UHGV virus genome: UHGV-1376702
Origin: a virus
Length of the DNA stretch: 44,254 bases
Reading direction: 5' to 3' (one strand)
Shown: positions 1,547-43,800 of the stretch, piece after piece
How the letters are laid out: each line of letters starts with the position of its first letter
Position numbering within the stretch: position 1 is the stretch's first letter
The notes under the pieces: model-generated
Told to the model about the DNA's origin: nothing
What the model saw: only the letters and a program-made list of their open reading frames with translations
The model's database searches: none
Made by a program: the position numbers and the translations under genes

Positions 1547-3402
1547 TGGTATCGGTGAAGACTGCGCGAAGACTGCGCATGCTCAACCAGAAACTTACTG
1601 GTTATAGTGCGAATCCGCGCAGTATTCCCAAAGAGGAGCGCGAGGATATCGCGATGATGATGGCCGCGGCGCTAAGCGACTTCCGGGAATTCGCGTACAT
1701 CGGTATGCGGTTCCTGGGCTTTACGCTCACGGACATGCAGGCCGACATTGCAGAGTACATGCAGAAGGGCCCTAGGAAGCGAATGGTGGCCGCGCAGCGT
1801 GGTGAGGCTAAGTCTACACTAGCTGCGCTGTACGCCGTCTGGAGGCTCATACAGGACCAATCCTGCCGTATCCTGATTGTGTCTGGTGCAGAGAAGCAGG
1901 CGTCCGATGTAGCGAACTTAATCATTCGTATGCTGGAAACCTGGCCGCTGCTGTGCTACTTGAAGGCTGACTCTACTCGTGGGGACCGTACTTCATTCGA
2001 AGGTTATGATGTTCACTGCGACCTGAAACCTCTAGATAAGTCCGCCAGCGTAGCCTGTGTAGGTATCACTGCATCCCTGCAGGGGAAGCGTGCGGACCTG
2101 CTGATTCCGGATGATATCGAGACCACCAAGAATGGTTTAACGCAAACCCAGCGTGAGCAGCTGCTGATGATTTCTAAAGACTTCGCGGCTATCTGTACGC
2201 ACGGGGATACGCTGTACCTGGGTACACCACAGACCAAGGACAGTATCTATAAAACCCTGCCGGGACGTGGCTTCGAGGTCCGCGTGTGGCCCGGGCGCAT
2301 TCCGTCTGTTGAAATGGAAGAGCGATATGGAAGTACACTTGCTCCTTATATCCTGGAGCTTATTGAGCGCGGCTATAAACGCACCGGCTTCGGAGTCGAT
2401 GGGACGCTAGGCGAGAGCACGGACCCCGGGCGCTATGACGAGGATGCACTGATTGAGAAGGAGCTGGACTTTGGTCCGGAAGGCTTCCAGCTGCAGTACA
2501 TGCTCGACACCACCCTGTCCGACCAAATGCGTACGCGTATCAAGCTTTCGGATATGCTGGTTTACTCTGGCAGCCAGGAGTCCTCACCGGAGACGTTCTC
2601 CTACATCGCGGACCGCCGGTACCTGTACCAGCATGAGCATGAGGGGATTATGGGTCAGCAGATGTACTTCCCGGCATTCTACGGGGACATGCACCTGCCG
2701 TACCAGCATAAGGTACTGGTGGTGGACCCGGCTGGTTGTGGTGGGGACGAAGTGTCCTACGCTGCTGGAGGTGCTGCGAACTCGTACATTCACCTATTCT
2801 CCGTAGGCGGATTCCAAGGAGGTATCAGCGAAGAGAACATTGATAAACTGATTGACCTGTGTGTAGAGTTGGACATCCCGGATATGGTGGTGGAGAGCAA
2901 TATGGGGCACGGTACCGTGTCTATGCTTATCCTGAACCGATTACGTGAGCGGCGTCTCGCCGGTATCGGTGTAAGGGACCTGAATAACTCCACGCAGAAA
3001 GAGCGTCGTATCATCGACACAATCAGCCCAGTTACTCGTCGCCATCGCCTGATAGTGCATGAGCGTGCTATTCACGACGATATCAGTACCTGTATGGCAT
3101 ATTCCCGCGATAGGCGTTGGCTGTACTCTGCGTTCGCGCAGTTGTCCGGTATCACGTACGACCGCGGTAGCCTTGCGAAGGATGACCGGGCAGACGCAAT
3201 CGCCATGATGGTGGCTACGCTGAATGGGCATCTGGTGGAAGATGAGAAAGTGGTGGCTGAGCGTGAGTCTGAGAAGATGGCTCGGGCCTTCATTGAGAAC
3301 CCGCTGGATTGGGCACAGAGCAAAGTGTCTAAGGGCCTTCGGGGTGTAGCTGCTCGGCTGCATAACCGAGGCAGAGGTAAACAACATAGAGGAAGAAGAT
3401 AA
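1546..3402 (+). CDS. terminase large subunit
   Basis: 618 aa; N-terminal ATPase-like region (RMVAAQRGEAKST) and C-terminal nuclease-like region (VVDPAGCGGDEVSYAAGG); size and synteny match T7 gp19-type TerL. Confidence 0.85.
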   Translation: MVSVKTARRLRMLNQKLTGYSANPRSIPKEEREDIAMMMAAALSDFREFAYIGMRFLGFTLTDMQADIAEYMQKGPRKRMVAAQRGEAKSTLAALYAVWRLIQDQSCRILIVSGAEKQASDVANLIIRMLETWPLLCYLKADSTRGDRTSFEGYDVHCDLKPLDKSASVACVGITASLQGKRADLLIPDDIETTKNGLTQTQREQLLMISKDFAAICTHGDTLYLGTPQTKDSIYKTLPGRGFEVRVWPGRIPSVEMEERYGSTLAPYILELIERGYKRTGFGVDGTLGESTDPGRYDEDALIEKELDFGPEGFQLQYMLDTTLSDQMRTRIKLSDMLVYSGSQESSPETFSYIADRRYLYQHEHEGIMGQQMYFPAFYGDMHLPYQHKVLVVDPAGCGGDEVSYAAGGAANSYIHLFSVGGFQGGISEENIDKLIDLCVELDIPDMVVESNMGHGTVSMLILNRLRERRLAGIGVRDLNNSTQKERRIIDTISPVTRRHRLIVHERAIHDDISTCMAYSRDRRWLYSAFAQLSGITYDRGSLAKDDRADAIAMMVATLNGHLVEDEKVVAERESEKMARAFIENPLDWAQSKVSKGLRGVAARLHNRGRGKQHRGRR

Positions 3403-7972: not shown

Positions 7973-8240
7973 GGGCCATAGGGGCGTGCTCTGCCTTGCT
8001 TATTTTGTGCGCCTCAGTGGGCCTGCCTAGTGCCTGTCTAGTGCCTGCGCAGTGGGGCCATAGGGTATGCCTAGTGCTATCCCTAGTGTGCACTAGGCTA
8101 TCCACTGGCTATCCTTAGTGCTTTACATTGTGCTAATTATGTGCTACGCTGCGCGCTCCCCACTAGGGCGCACATCCACCACACCGCACTATCCAGCGCT
8201 ATCCCTTTGCTCTTACTTTCATTCGAAAGCTATTATGAAA

Positions 8241-8260
8241 TGATGTTACAGGAGTAGGAG
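8241..8260 (+). promoter_or_regulatory. conserved motif copy 1 (ATGTTACAGGAGTAGGAG); candidate phage-RNAP promoter
   Basis: One of three identical copies of a 17-19-nt sequence (others at about 29667 and 41572); this copy is intergenic near the putative genome left end. Confidence 0.35.
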
Positions 8261-8527
8261 GGTTTTAGGGCACTATATACACTACTTAATACTAGTCCTT
8301 ACTAGTCCCTACTAGGCACTCACTAGTATGGCCCTGTGCCTACGTAGTAGGCTGCCATAACTACATAGTCACCGCATCACTACGTTCCTTCACTTACGTT
8401 ACGTCACTACGTTCTGCTTTATGTAGTATTAGATAGTATTGGCTAGACGTGGCTAGTATTGGCTACAGCCAGTGTCAGCACAGTGCTATCCCTAGTGGCT
8501 ATCCCTATAATATATAAGGAGTTATAC

Positions 8528-9082
8528 ATGTTACCATCTAGTCGGGCTACGGCTAAAGCCACTGGTAGTACATACTACTACACAGGGAAGCACTGTAAGT
8601 ACCAGCACACGGCAAAGCGCCTCACCAGTTCAGGGGAGTGCTCCGAGTGCTTTAAGATTAGGAGTACCAGCCCAGCTACTAAGGAGCGTATGCGGGAGTA
8701 CCATAAGGTTTATCAGGTACGTAAGGCAGAGGCCTTGAGAGAGTACCGTAAGACACGCCGACCTAAGCACATTATGACAGAGGAGCAATTACAGCGTAAG
8801 GTTCGCCACAATGCGCGATACCGTGCTGCGCGTACTCAATCCGTACCCTCATGGTATGGCGAGTGGGATGAGTTTGTTATGTTGGAGGCTATCGCTTTAG
8901 CAGCCGAGAGGGCGGAGTGTACTGGCATAGCGTGGCATATTGACCATATGCTACCGCTAAAGGCTAAAGAGGTGTGCGGCTTACACTGTGCGGGGAACAT
9001 TCAGGTGATACCCGCAACGCTTAATACACATAAGTGTAACAGGCTGCTATTCACGGAGCCGTTGGAGTGGCTAAAGGCATAA
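8528..9082 (+). CDS. HNH endonuclease with N-terminal zinc ribbon
   Basis: Start refined to ATG 8528 (RBS AAGGAG, TATAAT just upstream); Cys-x-x-Cys pairs near the N-terminus; C-terminal HNH motif AWHIDHMLPLKAKEVCGLHCAGNIQVIPATLNTHKCN. Confidence 0.7.
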   Translation: MLPSSRATAKATGSTYYYTGKHCKYQHTAKRLTSSGECSECFKIRSTSPATKERMREYHKVYQVRKAEALREYRKTRRPKHIMTEEQLQRKVRHNARYRAARTQSVPSWYGEWDEFVMLEAIALAAERAECTGIAWHIDHMLPLKAKEVCGLHCAGNIQVIPATLNTHKCNRLLFTEPLEWLKA

Positions 9083-9088
9083 ACTTGA

Positions 9089-9127
9089 GGTAATACAGTA
9101 CTATAAATGCTGTATTACCTTTTTTTA
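9089..9127 (+). terminator. rho-independent terminator
   Basis: Perfect 10-bp stem GGTAATACAG / CTGTATTACC with an 11-nt loop followed by T7, directly after the HNH gene stop. Confidence 0.6.
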
Positions 9128-9263
9128 TAAAAAGTGCTTGCTTTTTTAAATCTGCTAGGTGTATATTTATCCCATCGAAAGCGATACGGTCTACCGGGTA
9201 GCTCTAGATTCCAGAGTCAACTGGATAAGTAGACAGCCTGATAAGTCATATGAAAAACAGGTA

Positions 9264-9292
9264 TTGACAATAGCAGTAAACGCTTTTATAGT
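9264..9292 (+). promoter_or_regulatory. sigma70-type promoter (TTGACA-N17-TATAGT)
   Basis: Perfect -35 hexamer, 17-bp spacer, 5/6 match at -10; predicted start near 9299-9300. A weaker candidate (TTGCTT-N18-TATATT) lies at about 9138-9167. Confidence 0.6.
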
Positions 9293-9541
9293 TTGAACCA
9301 TGTTGCGGAGCAGTGTAGCGCCTAAAGGTGCTCTGACCACTAACCCTAGATACATGATAGTAGTAAGCGTGCCGGACGTTATCACCGGGGTTCTGAGACA
9401 AACCACACTGTCGAGGCGAGAGCAGCTCGCTCCTCTGAATCGAGGGAACAAGGCGCGGAGAGTATCCCGCAAAGAGCATATAACATAGCGTAGCAGTAAC
9501 AAGGCTGCGCTAGATTATGTTCTCTGAGAGGTAAGAAGATT

Positions 9542-9739
9542 ATGCGCAAAGCAAAGCGTTTAGCTTTACGGCGGAATATGCAGTTATCACTGAATCCCAC
9601 CGACAACGTGCCACTCACTGTGAAGCCAAGTAAACAAGGCCTGAGCTGTGAGCACAGGGTGAGAGGTAAGCAAAAGCAACGTGCTGGCAGTAAACAACCT
9701 TCGGGGTGGTCTACTATGAATGCACAGTTCGGACACTAA
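9542..9739 (+). CDS. small basic protein (hypothetical)
   Basis: 65-aa ORF with RBS GAGAGGTAAG 5-9 nt upstream; very Lys/Arg-rich; coding status uncertain. Confidence 0.3.
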   Translation: MRKAKRLALRRNMQLSLNPTDNVPLTVKPSKQGLSCEHRVRGKQKQRAGSKQPSGWSTMNAQFGH

Positions 9740-9743
9740 TTAC

Positions 9744-9775
9744 AGCCTATAGCATCCTATGGGGTGCTATGTGAA
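9744..9775 (+). promoter_or_regulatory. conserved hairpin element, copy A
   Basis: AGCCTAT + 7-bp stem (AGCATCC/GGGTGCT, one G-U) with 4-nt loop + ATGTGAA; about 40 nt upstream of the start at 9815; second copy at 10533. Confidence 0.4.
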
Positions 9776-9814
9776 GTAATTCGTAAAGTAAACAACCAAT
9801 CAAAGGGGTGCATT

Positions 9815-10399
9815 ATGACTAATTCCACCAATTCAACAGGTAAAGTATTCAAGCTCACCGCTGCTGGCAGCATTCGTAAAGCGCTGGGCGACGTAGTGGA
9901 AGCAAAGCGTAACATCACTATCAGCGCGCTCTTCCACGGCCTGATTAGCAGCAACGTATCATGGGCTACGGATATGCAGCGTAGCGATGCCGCTGACTTC
10001 GATATGGTGCTGCGTACGCTGTTGCCTATCAAGCTCAACAAGGAGTCCGGCAAATATGAGTTCAACGCTAAGAAGTGCTATGTGTCGGCTGAAAAGCTGG
10101 GTATCGAACTGGACACTATGCGTCTGGACTACAAACAAGCTGACAAGCAAGGCCGCGAAGTAATCGTAGCTAGATTTTATAGCTCCTGTATGGCCCTGTA
10201 CGCCGCCGAAGCAGAGCAGGTGAAGAATGACGCACTGGATGCCGATACAGTGCGCCTGCAAGCGCTGGGGCGCGTTAAAAACGCTATTAAGAAGGCTAAA
10301 GAGACTGGCGTAAGCGATGCTGACCTCGTGTCTATGCTGGTATCGCAAGGCGTGGACGTACGCGCTGTACTGGACGCAACTTTGAAGGCAGCGGCATAA
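9815..10399 (+). CDS. hypothetical early protein
   Basis: Start refined to ATG 9815 (RBS AAAGGGG); 195 aa; no recognisable motif. Confidence 0.55.
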   Translation: MTNSTNSTGKVFKLTAAGSIRKALGDVVEAKRNITISALFHGLISSNVSWATDMQRSDAADFDMVLRTLLPIKLNKESGKYEFNAKKCYVSAEKLGIELDTMRLDYKQADKQGREVIVARFYSSCMALYAAEAEQVKNDALDADTVRLQALGRVKNAIKKAKETGVSDADLVSMLVSQGVDVRAVLDATLKAAA

Positions 10400-10532
10400 T
10401 TTATAAAGTTCCGGTTATCAAGTGGTGGGCCTTGTGCCCTGCGGCCAACGATGCCGACGCTTTCGATATCCCTGTGCGGGCAATAGCTCAAAAATGGGTG
10501 TACGAGGGATTGGGCGAGTATCTCTAGTGGCA

Positions 10533-10564
10533 AGCCTATAGCGTCCTACGGGACGCTATGTGAA
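10533..10564 (+). promoter_or_regulatory. conserved hairpin element, copy B
   Basis: AGCCTAT + perfect 7-bp stem (AGCGTCC/GGACGCT) with 4-nt loop + ATGTGAA; about 25 nt upstream of the start at 10589; compensatory A:T to G:C change relative to copy A. Confidence 0.4.
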
Positions 10565-10588
10565 TGCAACTGGCGTATGAGGTGGCAT

Positions 10589-10810
10589 ATGAAAGCAATA
10601 CTGGTTTATCCGGGTCATGAACTCTGGCCCGTGTGGTGCAATCGCAAGTACGACGAATACAACTACACTGTGGTTATATTCTCTGACAAAGACACCAATC
10701 AGGAATCCCCATTCGAATTTGTGGATACCTACACCGAAATGGCTGCCCGCACTGTGCTGGACGCCGTTAATCTTGGCATCATCACCGATTGGAGACAACT
10801 ATATGGTTAA
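10589..10810 (+). CDS. hypothetical small acidic early protein
   Basis: Start refined to ATG 10589 (RBS GAGGTGG); 73 aa, Asp/Glu-rich. Confidence 0.5.
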   Translation: MKAILVYPGHELWPVWCNRKYDEYNYTVVIFSDKDTNQESPFEFVDTYTEMAARTVLDAVNLGIITDWRQLYG

Positions 10811-11066
10811 TGTATTCAACATCATTGTGACCAGCGCTATGCTGGTGCTGGGCAACGACGTAAACAACCCAATCCCATACTGCACAGTGCAGTTGCAGCA
10901 ACCCGCAACGCAGGAACCGCAGCCGCGCCCTGAGTATGACCTCTTTGAAGACCCCGAGGGCGGCTGCAAAGAGCTAGGCGCGCGTATTCTTGCCGCGGTG
11001 CAGGAGCAGTACCCGGACGCCGCCGTTACGCTTACGGTGGACGGTAAGAGCAACAGCGATATTTGA
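10803..11066 (+). CDS. hypothetical small early protein
   Basis: In-frame ATG 10803 overlapping the previous stop (ATATGG); hydrophobic N-terminus then acidic Pro/Gln/Glu-rich region; the upstream part of track ORF 10617..11066 overlaps the previous gene out of frame. Confidence 0.45.
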   Translation: MVNVFNIIVTSAMLVLGNDVNNPIPYCTVQLQQPATQEPQPRPEYDLFEDPEGGCKELGARILAAVQEQYPDAAVTLTVDGKSNSDI

Positions 11067-11144
11067 GGTTGGGCATGCACGGAAAGAATCCTGAGACGCT
11101 GCTAAAGCTAGGCTGCACCCAACCACTCCTACTGGGAGGCTCAC

Positions 11145-11489
11145 ATGATGACGGTAGATGAAGCTGCTGTTTTCATGTGGAAGCTGCTGGAAACGCAGGG
11201 CAAGTGCGGGTGCCCTTGGGGAACATTCAAAGAGGTTCCTAATGAACTCAAGCAAATCATACCGGTCGAGCGCAGACTCCTCCGTGTTCGTAGGCAGGAC
11301 TCTACGGTGGTGCTCACAACCTATCGCGAGTATACAGAATCTGCCGCGCGGCAGTTGCAAGAGCACATTCAGTTCGATGTGGTTGCAGCACTGCTACGGT
11401 ACGGGTATCGTGGAGCATATACAAGATTTAGGGCGGCAGTACGGGCATATTATAAGCAAGCGCAGATCGCTGCATGGTACGCACGCTGA
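11145..11489 (+). CDS. hypothetical early protein
   Basis: 114 aa; RBS GGAGG before ATGATG; protein-like composition, unlike the overlapping frame. Confidence 0.5.
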   Translation: MMTVDEAAVFMWKLLETQGKCGCPWGTFKEVPNELKQIIPVERRLLRVRRQDSTVVLTTYREYTESAARQLQEHIQFDVVAALLRYGYRGAYTRFRAAVRAYYKQAQIAAWYAR

Positions 11490-11538
11490 CTTAGTGGTTG
11501 GCGATGAACTCAAAGAACCTATTCAGGAGCAAACTAAA

Positions 11539-13215
11539 ATGCAAGAGACTAACACAGCACCTATCGAATGGAAAATCGTATTACCGGAAGGTGCAAACGC
11601 ACTGCCGATTAAAGAATCAATGTATTCCAGCGGTGATTACTGGACCCCGTTCCAGGACTTGCAAATGCAAGGGGAGGACCATCCCCACACTGAGGGTCCG
11701 CTGCAGGTGCTTATGGGTCTCCGCACTGTCAGTGCGCACACTCCAGGCTTAGAGGTGACTATAGGCGGGGCACTGCACCCAGAGTATCGCGAATCAACGA
11801 TGACGCTCGGCCCGTTGCAAAAGGTGGACCTGTACCGGTCCGGAACTTTCTGCGAACTCTTTGAACCGGTGCGAATCACCATAGACAGCAAGTTCTGGGA
11901 ACGCCGCCGCGACTTCTATGAGGGCGAGGATGTAGTGGTTGAGCGCGTAGTTGCTTGCGTCGAAGAATTCACAGGTTACAAGGTGCACAAGCAGGCCGTG
12001 CAGTTATTTGAGCGCATCATGCTTGCACCAGAAGAGCAGCAGCGCCGCTTATACACTGGCTACGATTACGGCCGCCACACCCGCGATGGCAACTTAGCTG
12101 CGCTGCTCATGAAGTTGCACGGATTCATAGTATCTAGATTCGCCGTGCCATTGGGCTTTGGTTTCCGCAACGGTGAGCCTATCGTGATGCTGGGGCAGCC
12201 GCGGATGCACAAGGACTTCGCCGCAGTTACCGAGTACCGTTGTGTGGAGATGCGCGTAGGTAAGTGGCTCGCTAACTACTACGGCAATGGCGTAGACTTC
12301 CGCGATGCTATCGAAGACCTCAAGGCTATGAACGTAGAGCCTACAACGTACCTGTGCAAGACCGAGCAGGAATGGTACGACTCCTACGAGAATGGCCCGA
12401 GTAGCTGCATGAGTGGATACTCATTTGAGCATAGCCCGGTGCGGGTGTATGCTACTACCAGCCACGGGCTGCCGGACAACGGGCTGCGCCTGTTCATCCA
12501 GTACACCGGGGAACTGTTCGGGGATGACTTCGAAGTGCAGGCACGGGCAATCGTTAACACAGAAACTAACGAGTACGTCCGCGCTTACGGCAACGCTGCG
12601 GATGCAATCCTGCGGGGGCATGGGTACACCAAAAACATTGAATGTCTCGAAGGGGTAATGCTGGCGCGAATACCGCACCCAACATACAACGGCGCAGTGC
12701 TGATGCCATACCTAGATAGCAGCCAGTGCGGCGTAGATGAGTATGGGGATGATGCCTTTGTAATCCGTGATGCTTATGAGTACGAGGCACAAGACTCAGA
12801 AGGATACATCTACGTAGGCACTGAGTCTGCTGGGTGCTGCTGCTGTGAATGTCGCTACTCTGTAGATGACATGCAGGAGACCGCAGATGGTGATATGGTC
12901 TGCGACGGCTGCGTAGAAGAAGGGGATTTTGTGTACGTAGTTGGGCGTGATGGTCTGCATAATCGCTGGAGCTGCACCTGGTCTGATTACCACGACGCCT
13001 ATGTATACGACGAGGACATAGAGCGCTGCGAAGTAGAGGGTGTAGTGCACGACCAAGAGGAACTGGTGTTTGCACAGGACCGGCAAGTGCTTATTGAACA
13101 CGCAGAAGAACACCCAGTGCACGGGTTAATTCTCACTGAGCATGCAGCTGATTGCTTGGGAGAGAAGTACCTGGGAAACGATGAAGATGAAGAAGAAGCA
13201 GAGGAGGCAGCTTAA
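11539..13215 (+). CDS. large early protein of unknown function (Cys cluster, acidic C-terminal tail)
   Basis: Start refined to ATG 11539 (RBS AGGAGC); the 127-codon 5' extension in the track has junk-like composition. 558 aa; CCCCEC and CDGC clusters near the C-terminus; ends NDEDEEEAEEAA. Confidence 0.55.
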   Translation: MQETNTAPIEWKIVLPEGANALPIKESMYSSGDYWTPFQDLQMQGEDHPHTEGPLQVLMGLRTVSAHTPGLEVTIGGALHPEYRESTMTLGPLQKVDLYRSGTFCELFEPVRITIDSKFWERRRDFYEGEDVVVERVVACVEEFTGYKVHKQAVQLFERIMLAPEEQQRRLYTGYDYGRHTRDGNLAALLMKLHGFIVSRFAVPLGFGFRNGEPIVMLGQPRMHKDFAAVTEYRCVEMRVGKWLANYYGNGVDFRDAIEDLKAMNVEPTTYLCKTEQEWYDSYENGPSSCMSGYSFEHSPVRVYATTSHGLPDNGLRLFIQYTGELFGDDFEVQARAIVNTETNEYVRAYGNAADAILRGHGYTKNIECLEGVMLARIPHPTYNGAVLMPYLDSSQCGVDEYGDDAFVIRDAYEYEAQDSEGYIYVGTESAGCCCCECRYSVDDMQETADGDMVCDGCVEEGDFVYVVGRDGLHNRWSCTWSDYHDAYVYDEDIERCEVEGVVHDQEELVFAQDRQVLIEHAEEHPVHGLILTEHAADCLGEKYLGNDEDEEEAEEAA

Positions 13216-27192: not shown

Positions 27193-29661
27193 ATGATTAG
27201 CGCCCTGAATACGGTTGTAGTACCAGAGGAAGCACTGGTGAAACGCCAGCTGGAGCTCGAAGAGACCTATAAGATTCGCGGAATCGAGCGGGCACGTAAG
27301 CTGATTACGGACGCATTGCAGAACGGCGGGATTATGAACCTGCCGATGACGCAGCGTATGCTCACCTCGGCATATGAGGTGGCTGCTGCCGCTATCGACG
27401 AGATGCGAAACGTCAAAGTCCCGGGCATTGGTGGTAAGTACCGCCGGTTCCTGCGCTTAGTCCCCTTGGATGTCCTGACCACACTGAGCCTGTGCACAAT
27501 GTTTGAAGCGTTTAGCGTCGCCCCCGGCGAGTCTGCTAGTCGCCGCCAGACTGCGCAGGCGGTAATGTCCGCACTGGGCCGGAACGTGCAGTCAGAGCTA
27601 CTGGCTCTGCAGTTACGCAACGTAGCCCCAGCGTACATGGACCGAGTATATGAGTATCTCACAGAGCGCCGTACGAAGTCCCCTACGCACATCCTGCGTA
27701 CGCTCCGTGCCAGTGCCGAGAATGTGCACTATGGGCACGAGCCTTGGACCAATGCCCAGAACATCTCCGTAGGGCGTCTGCTGTGTGCCGCGGTGTTTGA
27801 GACTGGCTTGTTCCAGTGGAAGACAGGTAGCGGGAACCTGAGCATGCTCTACCCGGCTGATGACGTTATGGAGGCCTTCCAGAAACTGGTGGAATCTGCC
27901 GACACTGTAACGATGAAGCCGCCTATGCTGGTCCCCCCGGTGCAGCACACCACTATGTGGGATGGTGGGTACCTTACTCCTATCGACAACCGCGGTACGT
28001 ACCATAACTCGCACATCGACCGCTCCAGGCTGCGTGAAGTGGCGGAAGCATTTAAGTCCGCGGATGGCATCAAGAAGGCGCTTAATAAGGCACAGGAAAC
28101 CCCATACCGTATTAATAAGCGCATACTGGAACTGGTGCAAGAAGCACGGGCCCTGGGTATTGGGATAGGTATGCCCCGCTCAATACCGGAGCCGAAGCCT
28201 GAGTGGTACTTGGATGGTGTACCAAAAGAGAACTACACCGAAGAAGAACTGGACCGCTTCGGTGAGTGGAAGACGCGTATGTCCCTGTGGTACAGTGCTG
28301 ACCGTAAGCGTGTGTCGCAACTACGCAGCCTTCTGACTACGTTGGAGATGGCAGAGGAATTCAAAGATGAGAAAGCCCTGTACTTCCCGACTTGTGTGGA
28401 CTGGCGCTACCGCCTGTACTTCAAGTCCTCGTTGCACCCGCAGGGTTCTGATTTGCAGAAGGCTCTGCTGGAATTCGGTAGAGGTAAACCTCTTGGAGAG
28501 AGAGGGTTGTTCTGGCTTAAAGTGCACGTCGCCACTTGCTTTGGTTATGACAAAACCCTATTCGAAGACCGCGCAGATTGGGTGGATAAAAATATGGCAG
28601 TTGTCCGCTCAGTTGCAGAGAATCCATTTGATTCGGACGCTTTTAAGCAGGCCGATTCACCGTGGTGTTTCTTGGCAGCAGTGCTCGACCTGGTGGCTGC
28701 TCTGGATTCTCCGTGCCCAGAAGAGTACATCTCCAGAACTCCGGTTGCTATGGACGCCACAAACTCAGGTGGACAGCACCTCTCAGCGCTCCTGAGAGAC
28801 CCTGTAGGCGGTCGTCTGACGAACCTGTACTGGGAAGGTAACGACAAGAAAGCGGACCTGTACATGGACGTGAAGCGCCGCACGGATGAGAAGGTGATAC
28901 TGGACCTGGACAAGGAGGATTTCGTTATCCAGAGCACGTACTGGAGAGAGAACGAAATCACCCGCAGCATGACCAAGCGCCCAAGTATGACCTACTTCTA
29001 CAGCGCCACGGTGCGTAGCTGCAGCGACTACATCTTTGAAGGCGCTTGCGCTGAGGGATACGAGGGTACCGATACTAACAGTCTGTGGAACCTGTCGTGC
29101 TACCTGGCACCGCGTATGCGCGCCGCTATAGAGGAGGCAAACCCCGCTGCTGCGGCAGTTATGGGGTACTTGCAGAATCTCGCTAGACGCGTACCGGCAA
29201 GCCAGCACCTGCAGTGGTATACGCCGCTGGGTGGGCTCGTAATGAACCGTTACACGCAGCGTGAAGAAGTGCGTGTACGTATTGACTGCATGAACCTGTC
29301 AGCGGTACTGGTACACAACCGGGACTTCAAAACTTGTAACAAGCGCAAGGCGGCCTCCGGGATTGCCCCAAACTTTGTGCATAGCCTGGACAGTACGCAC
29401 TTGATGATGGTGCTCTGCGCTGCGGAGGGGTTGGACATTGTGCCTATTCACGACTCGCTGGCTACTCACGCAGCTGACGTCGACACTATGCATAGGCACA
29501 TCCGTGAGCAGTTTGTGCGTCTATATGAAGAGAATGACCTGCTTGGCGATATTACTCGGGCAGCGGCAGCAGCCGGGGCAGACTTGACGGACCTGGACAT
29601 GCCAGAGGTGGGCACTTTGGACATCCGGCAAGTGCTAGAATCCCCGTTCTTCTTCTGCTAA
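27193..29661 (+). CDS. single-subunit DNA-directed RNA polymerase (T7-like)
   Basis: 822 aa; catalytic motifs DATNSGGQHLSALLRD (T7: DGSCSGIQHFSAMLRD) and PNFVHSLDSTHLMM (T7: PNFVHSQDGSHL). Confidence 0.95.
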   Translation: MISALNTVVVPEEALVKRQLELEETYKIRGIERARKLITDALQNGGIMNLPMTQRMLTSAYEVAAAAIDEMRNVKVPGIGGKYRRFLRLVPLDVLTTLSLCTMFEAFSVAPGESASRRQTAQAVMSALGRNVQSELLALQLRNVAPAYMDRVYEYLTERRTKSPTHILRTLRASAENVHYGHEPWTNAQNISVGRLLCAAVFETGLFQWKTGSGNLSMLYPADDVMEAFQKLVESADTVTMKPPMLVPPVQHTTMWDGGYLTPIDNRGTYHNSHIDRSRLREVAEAFKSADGIKKALNKAQETPYRINKRILELVQEARALGIGIGMPRSIPEPKPEWYLDGVPKENYTEEELDRFGEWKTRMSLWYSADRKRVSQLRSLLTTLEMAEEFKDEKALYFPTCVDWRYRLYFKSSLHPQGSDLQKALLEFGRGKPLGERGLFWLKVHVATCFGYDKTLFEDRADWVDKNMAVVRSVAENPFDSDAFKQADSPWCFLAAVLDLVAALDSPCPEEYISRTPVAMDATNSGGQHLSALLRDPVGGRLTNLYWEGNDKKADLYMDVKRRTDEKVILDLDKEDFVIQSTYWRENEITRSMTKRPSMTYFYSATVRSCSDYIFEGACAEGYEGTDTNSLWNLSCYLAPRMRAAIEEANPAAAAVMGYLQNLARRVPASQHLQWYTPLGGLVMNRYTQREEVRVRIDCMNLSAVLVHNRDFKTCNKRKAASGIAPNFVHSLDSTHLMMVLCAAEGLDIVPIHDSLATHAADVDTMHRHIREQFVRLYEENDLLGDITRAAAAAGADLTDLDMPEVGTLDIRQVLESPFFFC

Positions 29662-29666
29662 AAATT

Positions 29667-29685
29667 TAATGTTACAGGAGTAGGA
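29667..29685 (+). promoter_or_regulatory. conserved motif copy 2 (TAATGTTACAGGAGTAGGA); candidate phage-RNAP promoter
   Basis: Identical 17-mer core immediately downstream of the RNAP gene and directly abutting the ATG at 29686. Confidence 0.35.
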
Positions 29686-40828: not shown

Positions 40829-43800
40829 ATGGCTCAGTTTCTGAACCAAGAACCGAATCCACAGGAAAAGGATTCTGCTAAGGGCGCAACACTTAAACCT
40901 GCGCCTGAGCGCGTAGATTGGAACGATGCCGGAGACAACGGCTTAAACGCACTGGAGCGTGCCTCCTTACTGGCGCAGGCCAAGACCCCAGCTACTACAG
41001 CCGGGGAGAGCTTTGCGTCTGGTATGGGTAACAGCATCATCGCCGCAGCTATCCGTAAGGCCTCTGCCCCGGCATTTGACCGGGACCAGAACTTTAACGC
41101 CAAGCAGACTCTGAGCAGCGATACCAGGGCTAAGCTGTATGCTCCGAATCAGGAAGAGATTGAGTACCTGCACGACTCTGTATCGGTCGAGGATTACAAC
41201 TACCGCATGCAGCAGATGCTTGAGCAACGCAACCGTGACCGCTTAATGGCTGACAACACGGTAGCCGGGTTCGCGGGTATGTTGGTGGGTGATTCTCCGT
41301 TCATCCTGGCCCCGATGTCTGCCGCTGGTATTGCTGGCCGCGCAGGCTTAGCTGCACGGACTGCTATCCGCGCTGCTGACGTAGGCTCCGCATTCTATGC
41401 GCAGGACCAACTGGGCCAGTCTGCTGCGGTAACTGCACTGGTAGCGGGCGTAGCTGGGTTGGACCAGCTCTGGGATATGTCTAGGGCTGCTAAAGCTGCT
41501 GCTAAGGCTCGTACTGGGCGTGAGCCTATGTTCGACCCAGAAGCGCCTACAACTCGTACAGCGAGGGACGCTAATGTTACAGGAGTAGGAGAGGGAGAGG
41601 AAATTCTCACTAAGACACTGGGTGAAAGCATCCAAGTATCGAGAAACAATACCGCCTCCGTGAACATGAAAGCACAGCACGTAGTTCAGTTCTTGAAGAA
41701 GTCTGAGCACTTGACAGCAGGACAGAAGGCTATTCTGGACACGCTGGGCGATGCTGTAAATGACATTGATTTTAAACTGGTAGCAGGCTCCGCAAACCGT
41801 AGCCGCTACACTTACGCACAACAAGATTTAGCTAAGCGTGGAGAGATATCCCTGCGCGCGCCTAAGCAAGCTAACGGCAGCACCTGGACTACAGTCGGTG
41901 ATGCGCTGCGCGCTATGGATGCAGATACAAGCAAGGTGGCCGTGCACGAACTGATTCATGCCGCTACTGCGCGCGCCATTGACAGTAATCCCGAGATTGC
42001 TAAACGCCTGGAGGAAGTGCGCGCTGTTATTGCAGCTGACTCCACCCTGACACCGCGTATGCGGTATTACGCAAGTAATGTGCATGAGATGCTGGCAGGT
42101 TTAGGCGACAGCCCTGAGTGGGTTGAGCACCTGGCACGTACGCAGTCTCCCACCGGTAAGAGCATGCTCCGCCAACTGGGTGAGTACATCATGAATGCCT
42201 TGGGCATCAAAGCCAAGGGCTCTGCCTTGGAGGATGTCCTGGATGCGTATGAGGACGCAGTTAAGTGGACCGCTAAGGATTATGCAGACCAAGCCCAGAG
42301 CTTCCGTAGCGAAGCCTTCCAGGACCTGGCGGGCAGCACCACCCTCAATGAGGCTAAGAGCGCCCAAGCTATGCTGGACGGCGCCAAGAAGAAGCTCTCC
42401 ACTATGTTTGCCCTGTACGATAATATCGCTCAAGGCAACGAAGACTTGGCTAAACTGCTAGTGTCGGATGCGTCCGCAGTAGGCGGCCGTCGCCCGTCAG
42501 TGGTAGACTACAAGCGTAACCTCACTTTGGAGATGGATGCTCGCGCCAGCGTAGTGGAAGATGCTATCCTGGGTGCGTTGAAGGATAAGGGTGTAGGGGT
42601 GCTCTCACGCTTCTTCCATCGTAGTAATTTCCGCGCTGAGCGGGCTGCGCTGGAAGACCGCCTGAGTAAGTACCTGGATGCTGCCTACAGCGCTGACGTA
42701 AACGGTCGCGCTGTTCCGGTACCGGATGCAGAGATTGCTCCGCTGGTTGATGCCTATCATCGCTCTGGCTGGGCTAGCAAGTGGCATGATCACATGACCG
42801 CTGCTGGCTTGGTGGATGATGGTGCGTTGGTTAAATCCGACTACTACTTCCCGCGCCAGTACAGCTACGACAAGATGCGCCAAGGTATCGCACAGGGTAA
42901 CACTCTGGATGACTACCGCGCCCTGTTCCGGTCCGCCCTGCGGGACGTGTACCCGAGCATGGAGTCAGAGGTAGTGCAGCGTGTTGCTAAGGAGATGGTT
43001 GACGGTATCTACAACGGCCGTGCTGGGCAGTCTGGTCCTATGTGGAAGCAGCTGATTAACGGTATGGGTAACGACGAGGTCGTTATGGCTATGCGTAGCG
43101 CTGGTGTAGAAGAGTCTGCAATCCAGAGCTTCCTGGCTGGTAACGTACGAGAATCCGGCAGCACATCCCCTGCGCGGAACCTGCGTCAGCGTACTCGGTT
43201 CAACATGGACAAAGAGTACCTGATTAACGGAAAGAGCATGCGCATGCAGGACCTGATGGATACTGACGTAGCCAAGGTTATGCACGGGTACACTAACCGT
43301 ATGTCTGGACGTGTAGGCATGGCCTATGCAGGCGTACAGGACCTGGGGCAGCTCGCTAAGATGATTGATGAGTCTAAGCACGCACTGGCGGATTCCGCTA
43401 AGTGGGAGAAGACCGTTAATGACACCATCGACTTTATCCTGGGCGGGGCACCTGCTGACGCCGGGCAGCTTCCGGACTTGCTGCGAGCAGCTGGGAACAT
43501 GGCTAACGCTACCATGCTTAAGAACTCCGGCCTGTATCAGCTGACTGATACTGCTCTGGCTATGAAGGAGTTCGGTATGGCTAGAGTGCTGCGCAGTATG
43601 CGTGACCAGCCTTGGTTCAAGGAAGGTGCCGTAGCTATCAATACTCCGGATATGGCTGCCCGTCTAGACACCGTGCTGCGAGGCAATATCCAGAAGGAGA
43701 TGCGATTCCGCTGGCTGAATACATACGCTGACGATAACCTGGACCTGACCCGTCAGGCCTCCTGGTTCAACGTCACTCAGAACGTCGGGCAGGCTGCACG

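Follow-up and report, generated by a model that had tools for sequence, protein, structure and literature searches.

A 32-nucleotide (nt) motif occurring at two sites in each of the phages KP34, SU503, SU552A, NTUH-K2044-K1-1 and F19 was listed, with the consensus AGCCTATAGCGTCCTACGGGGCGCTATGTGAA, as a putative phage promoter or nick site by Eriksson et al. (2015, Viruses 7:1804, Table 3), and it is annotated as 'promoter' in the GenBank records of SU503 and SU552A. Lu et al. (2019) obtained no RNA from a motif-bearing polymerase chain reaction (PCR) fragment with purified KP34 RNA polymerase in vitro, and the true KP34 promoters that they describe, T(A/G)ATGTTACAGGAGTA, are unrelated to the motif; these two papers were the only relevant ones returned by a full-text literature search with the motif sequence. 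The sequence is already known, and its role as a promoter is refuted. Here we analyse two copies of this motif in UHGV virus genome UHGV-1376702, a stretch of 44,254 nt (the window, below) that is a circularly permuted genome of the genus Drulisvirus (KP34/KpV41-like). The motif is the inner part of a conserved RNA hairpin of the early region and, judged by its likeness to the ribonuclease III (RNase III) sites in the early mRNA of phage T7, it is best explained as a second sequence family doing what those T7 sites do.

The two copies reported in the original prediction are present on the + strand at 9744-9775 (AGCCTATAGCATCCTATGGGGTGCTATGTGAA, copy A) and 10533-10564 (AGCCTATAGCGTCCTACGGGACGCTATGTGAA, copy B). 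None of 100 dinucleotide-preserving shuffles matched the motif, and the covariance model R1 (a label of ours, distinct from that of the T7 site R1), run over the whole window, matched copies A and B only, with the + strand scores given in Table 1 compared with 12-16 bits on the - strand. The stem of 7 base pairs (bp) that had been proposed proved too short, because its supposed flanks pair as well, CCUAUAGC with GCUAUGUG, although a U·G wobble and a C·U mismatch are included. The full hairpin, with the same fold for both copies, measures about 50 nt, as against the 32-nt repeat first seen. Outermost is a lower stem of 6-9 bp, followed inwards by an AG/AA internal loop (2x2); a single C-G pair and then a C·U mismatch lead from this loop to a 10-bp helix, which starts with U·G and is capped by a tetraloop. 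The lower stem is built from the non-conserved flanks, which read AAUUAC/GUAAUU in copy A and CUAGUGGCA/UGCAACUGG, with one G·A mismatch, in copy B. On the + strand the folding energies were -18.7 kcal/mol (z = -2.9) for copy A and -29.0 kcal/mol (z = -3.5) for copy B, and folding of the - strand was weaker. The stop codon of the gene 5' of copy A (9737-9739) falls within the lower stem of that copy, as does the TAG stop codon of a short open reading frame (ORF) 5' of copy B (10525-10527) within the lower stem of copy B; the distance from the end of the motif to the start codon of the next gene is 40 nt for copy A (start at 9815) and 25 nt for copy B (start at 10589), in agreement with the original description of hairpins a few tens of nucleotides upstream of early genes. 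That description also gave the copies identical flanks and an A:T to G:C difference in the stem. The stem change is real, but there are two more differences: copy A has U·G and copy B has U-A at the adjoining pair on the loop side, and the loop is UAUG in the former and UACG in the latter. Among the 82 unique instances described below, copy B (10551-10553) is alone in having U-A for the conserved third-pair U·G (GGGACGC, not GGGGCGC).

Relatives of the element were collected by pattern scans of IMG/VR. A first loose pattern, with 14 fixed bases, gave mostly chance matches and one unrelated repeat family, the highly repeated sequence ATCTGCTATTAACTATAGCTTYTTRAGAAATGCTATGTCRATGACAGAYG of loci L002, L009, L011, L015 and some 35 other IMG/VR loci from contigs of 90-190 kilobases (kb). 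The motif-based sample used for analysis (alignment A1) comprised 82 unique 66-nt instances from some 60 contigs, each 41-45 kb long and holding one to three copies. In this alignment 91.1% of the cells were paired, compared with 26-43% when the partners were slid; changes on both sides occurred in 13 of the 20 pairs, and the covariation score of 0.457, against 0.13 in shuffles, was reached by none of 500 shuffles. RNAalifold, run independently, returned the same fold, with 14 of 19 pairs compensatory. The change between copies A and B, interpreted at the outset as compensatory, is borne out at pair 28:39 of the alignment, which is G:C in 40, A:U in 30 and C:G in 11 of the instances. Since the search pattern had fixed part of the core, relatives were also sampled through flanking proteins, and in the set retrieved via a flanking protein and not via the motif (alignment A3) 92.9% of the cells were paired and 16 of the 20 pairs showed double changes. 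Related phages do, on both samplings, hold the further covarying copies that were to be looked for according to the original prediction. The double changes of the second set include flips within the apparently 'invariant' core, in SP6, IME184 and loci L216, L217 and L219; among these divergent members the core reads UAGUG/CACUA in SP6, UAUAAC/GUUAUG in IME184, UAAUGC/GCAUUG in L216 and UUAUGC/GCAUAG in L219, and the U·G, C·U, C-G and AG/AA features are retained. The lower stem exists in at least seven complementary sequence versions among the relatives. A U·G wobble is conserved at position 3 from the loop (78 of 82) and is invariant at position 10, and these wobbles are C·A mismatches on the opposite strand; the tetraloop is YNCG in 53 and the AG/AA internal loop is conserved in 69 of the 82 instances. 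With the two conserved U·G pairs set aside, G·U and A·C were found 45 and 37 times at all free pairs, a count that does not settle the strand.

The placement of the element is regular. A megablast search with 9000-12000 of the window returned 386 phage records, mostly of Klebsiella phages of the genus Drulisvirus (Autographiviridae, Slopekvirinae). All 40 loci retrieved with the 194-amino-acid (aa) protein encoded between copies A and B carry a copy just 5' of its gene, so the absence from related genomes that would have told against the element is not seen; a second copy lies 3' of that gene in 36 of the 40, three copies occur in 3, and all 79 matches in these loci have the sense orientation. 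Identity among the loci is 90-100% in the hairpin block and 30-80% in the flanks. In 83 of 103 contexts the upstream ORF has its stop codon 0-9 nt 5' of the inner stem-loop of 28 nt (CCUAUAGC...GCUAUGUG), and in 92 of 97 the next start codon follows 24-49 nt 3' of it. The selection on RNA structure proposed from the two copies alone is strongly supported by the covariation, the independently obtained fold, the conserved U·G pairs, the UNCG-type loops and the sense-only orientation, and the conserved U·G pairs, the YNCG loops, the constant sense orientation and the regular placement point to an element that acts as + strand RNA and not as a DNA palindrome. The present analysis establishes its structure, the selection on that structure, its strand and its position.

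Copy number varies within the genus. In three-copy Drulisvirus genomes (L182, 2332-2473; L177, 2328-2473; L163, 1520-1661) two copies stand in tandem, 88 nt apart, 5' of the 194-aa gene, with a separate complementary lower stem, GGUUAAU/AUUAACC, in the extra copy. Natural A/B chimeras also occur in IMG/VR (L034, L123 and L131; compare 9733-10575 of the window), in which the left flank of copy A is joined to the right flank of copy B; here recombination between the repeats has removed the 194-aa gene, and these chimeras have a broken lower stem.

The element is found well outside Drulisvirus, in K1E/K1-5-like Vectrevirus, in SP6 and other Zindervirus, in SP6-like Klebsiella and Raoultella phages, in Cronobacter phage Peggy and another phage of 49.7 kb, and, in two copies, in phiEco32 (Kuravirus). 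In the SP6-like phages it is always located about 20 nt 5' of the gene that precedes the RNA polymerase gene. The phiEco32 copies (L156, - strand, 2024-2077 and 7978-8037) lie among small leftward-transcribed genes, and the second of them, at 26 bits, is divergent: 12 extra nt are inserted at its top, and it has a different lower stem, AACACC/GGUGUU. Phage phiEco32 uses the host RNA polymerase together with a phage sigma factor and is not known to have a single-subunit polymerase. A search across the phage groups for homologous neighbour genes, as possible cassette partners, found none. Because the phages that share the element have different polymerases and non-homologous neighbours, its distribution argues for recognition by a host factor. 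The pattern GCCTATAGC-N12-GCTATGTGA was not matched when 185,579 bacterial and archaeal species, represented by one genome apiece, were searched, and on this ground a host-genome repeat of the repetitive extragenic palindromic (REP) or enterobacterial repetitive intergenic consensus (ERIC) kind and a mimic of a clustered regularly interspaced short palindromic repeat (CRISPR) were rejected. Region 8000-12000, searched on both strands against the 4227 covariance models of Rfam, matched none at E up to 10.

For comparison, the five T7 early intergenic regions with sites R0.3, R0.5, R1, R1.1 and R1.3 were folded and laid out from the loop outward. The T7 GenBank and RefSeq records carry no RNase III site annotation, and the cleavage coordinates used are those reportedly given by Dunn and Studier in 1983; by them the T7 cut presumably falls after the 13th nucleotide 3' of the loop. 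Below the 10-bp upper stem of R1.1 and R0.5, which has U·G as its third pair, position 11 is C·U, position 12 is paired and position 13 is mismatched. The element shares the 10-bp upper stem, under a tetraloop, the U·G third pair and the C·U at position 11, and continues with C-G at position 12, then the AG/AA loop, where the T7 RNA is cut, and then the lower stem. In both systems several sense-strand hairpin copies occupy intergenic positions in a host-transcribed early operon, the foot of the stem holds the upstream stop codon, the helix totals about 20 bp, and the upper stem, of 9-10 bp with G·U, varies by compensation at the top and is conserved at the base. The two differ in conserved sequence, which is CCUAUAGC..GCUAUGUGAA in the element and CUCAAGGUC..GGCCUUUAUGAU in T7, and in the internal loop, which is symmetric (2x2, AG/AA) in the element but asymmetric in T7.

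General properties of RNase III signals are also found in the element, namely some 20 bp of mostly double-stranded RNA (the lower stem of 6-9 bp, the 2x2 loop and 12 inner positions) and an irregularity of the helix about 11-13 positions from its distal end (C·U at 11, G·A/A·A at 13-14). Under the distal-box/proximal-box rules of Pertzev & Nicholson (2006; PMC1540722), in which G-C or C-G at positions pb2 and pb4 is an antideterminant, the element set in the register of R1.1 has the canonical distal-box UG (db2 U·G), A-U at pb2 and C·U at pb4 (U·C in R1.1), and thus neither G-C nor C-G at pb2 or pb4; its db1, pb1 and pb3 are not canonical (see below). According to Altuvia et al. (2018; PMC6212723) the two positions that separate the cuts made in vivo are base-paired as a rule, one or both of the pairs being G-C, and the conserved C-G between the putative cuts of the element fits this rule. 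Where the target contains mismatches or loops, cleavage of one strand only is favoured, and a stabilizing 3' hairpin is left (Nicholson review; PMC3867540).

Among the loci retrieved with the SP6 gp7 protein, the most distant are Vibrio phage Vp670-like, and in them the slot 5' of the SP6-gp7 homologue holds AACUCAGAGUCAUUC-loop-GAGUGGCUCUUAUGAU, nearly the sequence of T7 R1.1. A covariance model of the five T7 sites finds more copies in Vp670-like phages. Between the two families the models give weak matches in both directions: the element's own model matches a Vibrio T7-type site at E = 0.005, and the T7-site model matches copy A and nothing else in the window (score below). These SP6-gp7-containing Vibrio genomes encode a protein kinase and have at least three T7-type hairpins, intergenic and nearly identical to the T7 RNase III consensus (L225, 1419-1469, 2531-2579 and 3536-3583; L224, 952-1001, 1918-1966 and 2887-2934), so the T7-type site family extends well beyond the T7 group. 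In SP6 itself (L155) each other early intergenic gap contains a different hairpin (about 1570-1625, 2125-2165 and 3324-3366), one of them just before the RNA polymerase gene, where T7 has R1; these share the design of a lower stem, a 2x2 loop (often AG/GA) and an upper stem of 9-10 bp.

On this evidence we favour, at a probability of roughly 0.6, the reading of the element as an RNase III-type processing and stability signal of the early polycistronic mRNA. A T7-like RNase III site, by its stem layout and the slot replacement in Vibrio phages, is the best fit of the candidate roles named in the original prediction, although the element is not a member of the T7 sequence family. Several findings weigh against this reading. 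The T7-site model gave 12.3 bits (E = 2.2, not significant) for copy A, its sole match in the whole window, and no match for copy B, and true members of the T7-site family score 30-58 bits. The check on the T7 coordinates behind the 13-nt ruler was one of internal consistency with the conserved motif CCUUUAU/GAU (cut at the stroke). In the R1.1 register, db1 is C-G (optimum U-A), pb1 is U-A (against G-C) and pb3 is U·G (against A-U). Since the lower stem is broken in some natural A/B recombinants, its integrity is not indispensable. In the searchable literature we found no cleavage, 5'/3'-end or rnc-dependence data for Drulisvirus, SP6-like phages, K1-5 or phiEco32. Finally, conservation of the core and of the AG/AA loop among unrelated phages goes beyond the obvious need of the weakly sequence-specific RNase III, a point offset by the T7-type sites, which are similarly conserved between T7 and the Vibrio phages.

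The mechanism that we infer, with RNase III as the factor and with the cut position and the effects on stability and translation modelled on T7, would run as follows. The hairpins would act in cis in a polycistronic early mRNA, probably made by the host RNA polymerase from the sigma-70-like promoter of Table 1, and host RNase III would bind the interrupted helix of some 20-23 bp and cut in its non-Watson-Crick region (C·U, AG/AA), 12-14 positions below the tetraloop and near the scissile bonds predicted in Table 1, thereby separating the cistrons. Were the 3' side alone cut, the upstream message would end in a very stable, UNCG-capped hairpin of 10-12 bp that could shield it from 3' exonucleases, as might be the case for the mRNA of the 65-aa gene, which would keep the hairpin at its 3' end; the downstream message would then begin about 20-35 nt ahead of its ribosome-binding site.

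Strong conservation of the core and internal loop while both stems covary is a pattern typical of protein-recognition sites, and about 10-25 nt separate the structure's 3' end from the next Shine-Dalgarno sequence, so that the hairpin might instead be the operator of a dedicated RNA-binding protein, from the phage or a host protein other than RNase III, which would recognize the CCUAUAGC/GCUAUGUG box and the AG/AA loop and repress, activate or time the translation or decay of the flanking early genes. We consider this unlikely, because the flanking genes are non-homologous between the phage groups, Drulisvirus, SP6-like phages and phiEco32 have few early proteins in common, the hairpin does not overlap the ribosome-binding site, and a T7-type RNase III site replaces the element in the same slot of the Vibrio relatives. 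That the box is common to three otherwise unrelated enterobacterial phage lineages and absent from bacterial genomes is the basis of a further and, in our estimate, unlikely proposal, that the near-invariant box and loop are the docking site of a specific factor, for example a hijacked host RNA-binding protein, and not simply an RNase III site, or that the element is a decoy for a host defence nuclease; if so, it would represent a class of regulatory RNA that is new and specific to phages and is passed on horizontally as a cassette of about 50 nt. The very stable, UNCG-capped upper stems would also suit an uncut, passive stabilizer or insulator that blocks 3'-to-5' exonucleases or RNase E scanning and sets a differential stability of the cistrons, the role that C(UUCG)G hairpins have in intergenic regions of T4, and hairpins of this kind are described as common between phage genes in the part of PMC8948821 that cites Tuerk 1988. 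This seems rather improbable, since it leaves unexplained both the agreement with the T7 cleavage geometry and the conserved mismatches, internal loop and covarying lower stem at 12-14 positions from the loop.

Two readings have much less in their favour. A cis-acting antitermination or polymerase-modifying RNA, similar to put or nut, would allow the host RNA polymerase to read through the long early-middle region, and it has in its favour the two copies early in a host-transcribed operon and the need of phiKMV-like phages for that polymerase far downstream, before the phage RNA polymerase gene is reached. The put fold has two stems, however, and the element is a single hairpin; it matches no Rfam family, the one strong copy of the SP6-like phages sits close ahead of the polymerase gene, where no long read-through is needed, and relatives have an RNase III site in its place, all of which makes it very unlikely. 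A signal at the level of DNA, whether a promoter of the phage RNA polymerase, a single-strand nick site, a replication origin or a recombination site, has behind it the proposal of Eriksson et al. (2015), the 'promoter' entries for SU503 and SU552A, and the fact that the gene lying between the repeats is indeed deleted or inserted by way of them. It is already largely refuted, and in our estimate scarcely tenable: a KP34-type promoter is rejected by the negative result in vitro (Lu et al., 2019), by its unrelated sequence, with the real promoters elsewhere in the window, and by the presence of the motif in phages with other polymerases, namely those with SP6-type RNA polymerase and phiEco32, and the covariation with G·U pairs, the fixed sense orientation and the UNCG loops point to RNA.

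Some further identities were rejected in their own right. A T7-style promoter with +1 at TATAG is excluded by the sequence 5' of AGCC, which is not conserved between the copies, as well as by the negative test in vitro. Neither copy was reported as an intrinsic (Rho-independent) terminator by a terminator scan, the 3' flanks being GUGAAGUAAUUCG and GUGAAUGCAACUG, and a kink-turn is ruled out because there is no 3-nt bulge, the internal loops being a symmetric 2x2 and a 1x1. Single-stranded DNA hairpin promoters of the N4 type need an N4-like virion polymerase and have stems of 5-7 bp with 3-nt loops; the stem here is far longer, and the genome is that of a 44-kb member of the Autographiviridae.

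The features of the window are collected in Table 1. Exact copies of the validated KP34 strong promoter, TGATGTTACAGGAGTA once and TAATGTTACAGGAGTA twice, stand at positions equivalent in relative terms to those in KP34, that is at the left end, directly after the RNA polymerase gene and in the late region; a 2025 paper points out that what the PhagePromoter tool takes as the 'standard' KP34 promoter is at odds with the validated sequence. Copies A and B belong to the early region, about 2 and 2.8 kb from the left end of the genome, and both sizeable intergenic gaps of the early operon contain a hairpin copy. The sigma-70-like promoter, recognized by its match to the consensus, probably drives the host-polymerase early transcript that carries both hairpins. 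Upstream of it, at 8459-9121, is a 207-aa ORF (TTG start) with a match to PHROG 1035 'endonuclease VII' and an HNH-like C-terminus, followed on its 3' side by a 14-bp hairpin with a T-run (9087-9121). The homology of most relatives to the window begins only at about 9362, and a few of them, RCIP0038 and Henu1 among these, have an HNH endonuclease at the place of the 207-aa ORF; the region of the 207-aa ORF looks like a homing-endonuclease insertion into the non-coding left-end region. A 685-aa early ORF at 11158-13215 has a cysteine-rich, very acidic C-terminal part and no Pfam match at E <=0.01.

Table 1. Coordinates of the hairpin copies, predicted cleavage positions, genes and promoters in the window.
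Feature	Position	Strand	Description
Hairpin copy A, complete	9735-9784	+	By fold; R1 match 9733-9786, 67.7 bits, E 3e-18 (- strand 12 bits)
Copy A, lower stem	9735-9743/9776-9784		
Copy A, internal loop			AG/AA
Copy A, inner stem	9746-9757/9762-9773		
Copy A, tetraloop	9758-9761		UAUG
Hairpin copy B, complete	10524-10573	+	By fold; R1 match 10522-10575, 65.4 bits
Copy B, lower stem			With 1x1 G·A mismatch
Copy B, internal loop			AG/AA
Copy B, inner stem	10535-10546/10551-10562		
Copy B, tetraloop	10547-10550		UACG
Predicted RNase III scissile bond, copy A	9774/9775	+	After 13th nt 3' of loop, by analogy with T7 R1.1 and R0.5
Predicted RNase III scissile bond, copy B	10563/10564	+	Same ruler as copy A
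Sigma-70-like promoter	9264-9292	+	TTGACA, 17-nt spacer, TATAGT; 11/12 positions; consensus match only
Early gene 5' of copy A	9542-9739	+	65 aa, PHROG 32970
Early gene between copies A and B	9815-10399	+	194 aa, PHROG 5277
Early gene 3' of copy B	10589-10810	+	73 aa, PHROG 7657
RNA polymerase gene	27193-29661		
KP34 promoter copy	8241-8256		Left end
KP34 promoter copy	29667-29682		Directly after RNA polymerase gene
KP34 promoter copy	41572-41587		Late region

In this genus, which has found wide use in Klebsiella phage therapy and engineering, no other non-coding feature is as conserved as the motif. GenBank records continue to mis-annotate it as 'promoter', and since the failure of the promoter idea in 2019 it had been left without an assigned function. 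Rfam has no entry for the RNA family that it defines. If the RNase III reading is true, the T7 strategy of early-mRNA processing would extend to phiKMV-like, SP6-like and phiEco32-like phages. For phage engineering, the hairpins mark natural cistron boundaries and could serve as portable processing or stability modules, and recombination between copies removes the intervening gene.

Comparison with other described elements helps to place the hairpin. The PeSL repeated stem-loops of T4-type phages, which Arbiol et al. are said to have proposed in 2010 as mobile regulatory cassettes, and which reportedly include an early promoter, are likewise repeated intergenic stem-loops that flank small early genes and coincide with the gain or loss of the gene between them; the present element, in contrast, has no associated promoter, and the shuffling of genes looks like a by-product. 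With the motif of Eriksson et al. (2015) it shares the same 32-nt sequence at the same two positions in the five phages, and to that published description are now added the hairpin, the covariation, the extension into the flanks and the copies in SP6-like phages and phiEco32, all of them absent from it. The C(UUCG)G hairpins (Tuerk et al., 1988; phage 7-11, PMC8948821) are alike in being UNCG-capped, very stable, intergenic and on the sense strand, but they are short generic stems without conserved sequence, whereas the element described here has a conserved core, mismatches, an internal loop and a second helix.

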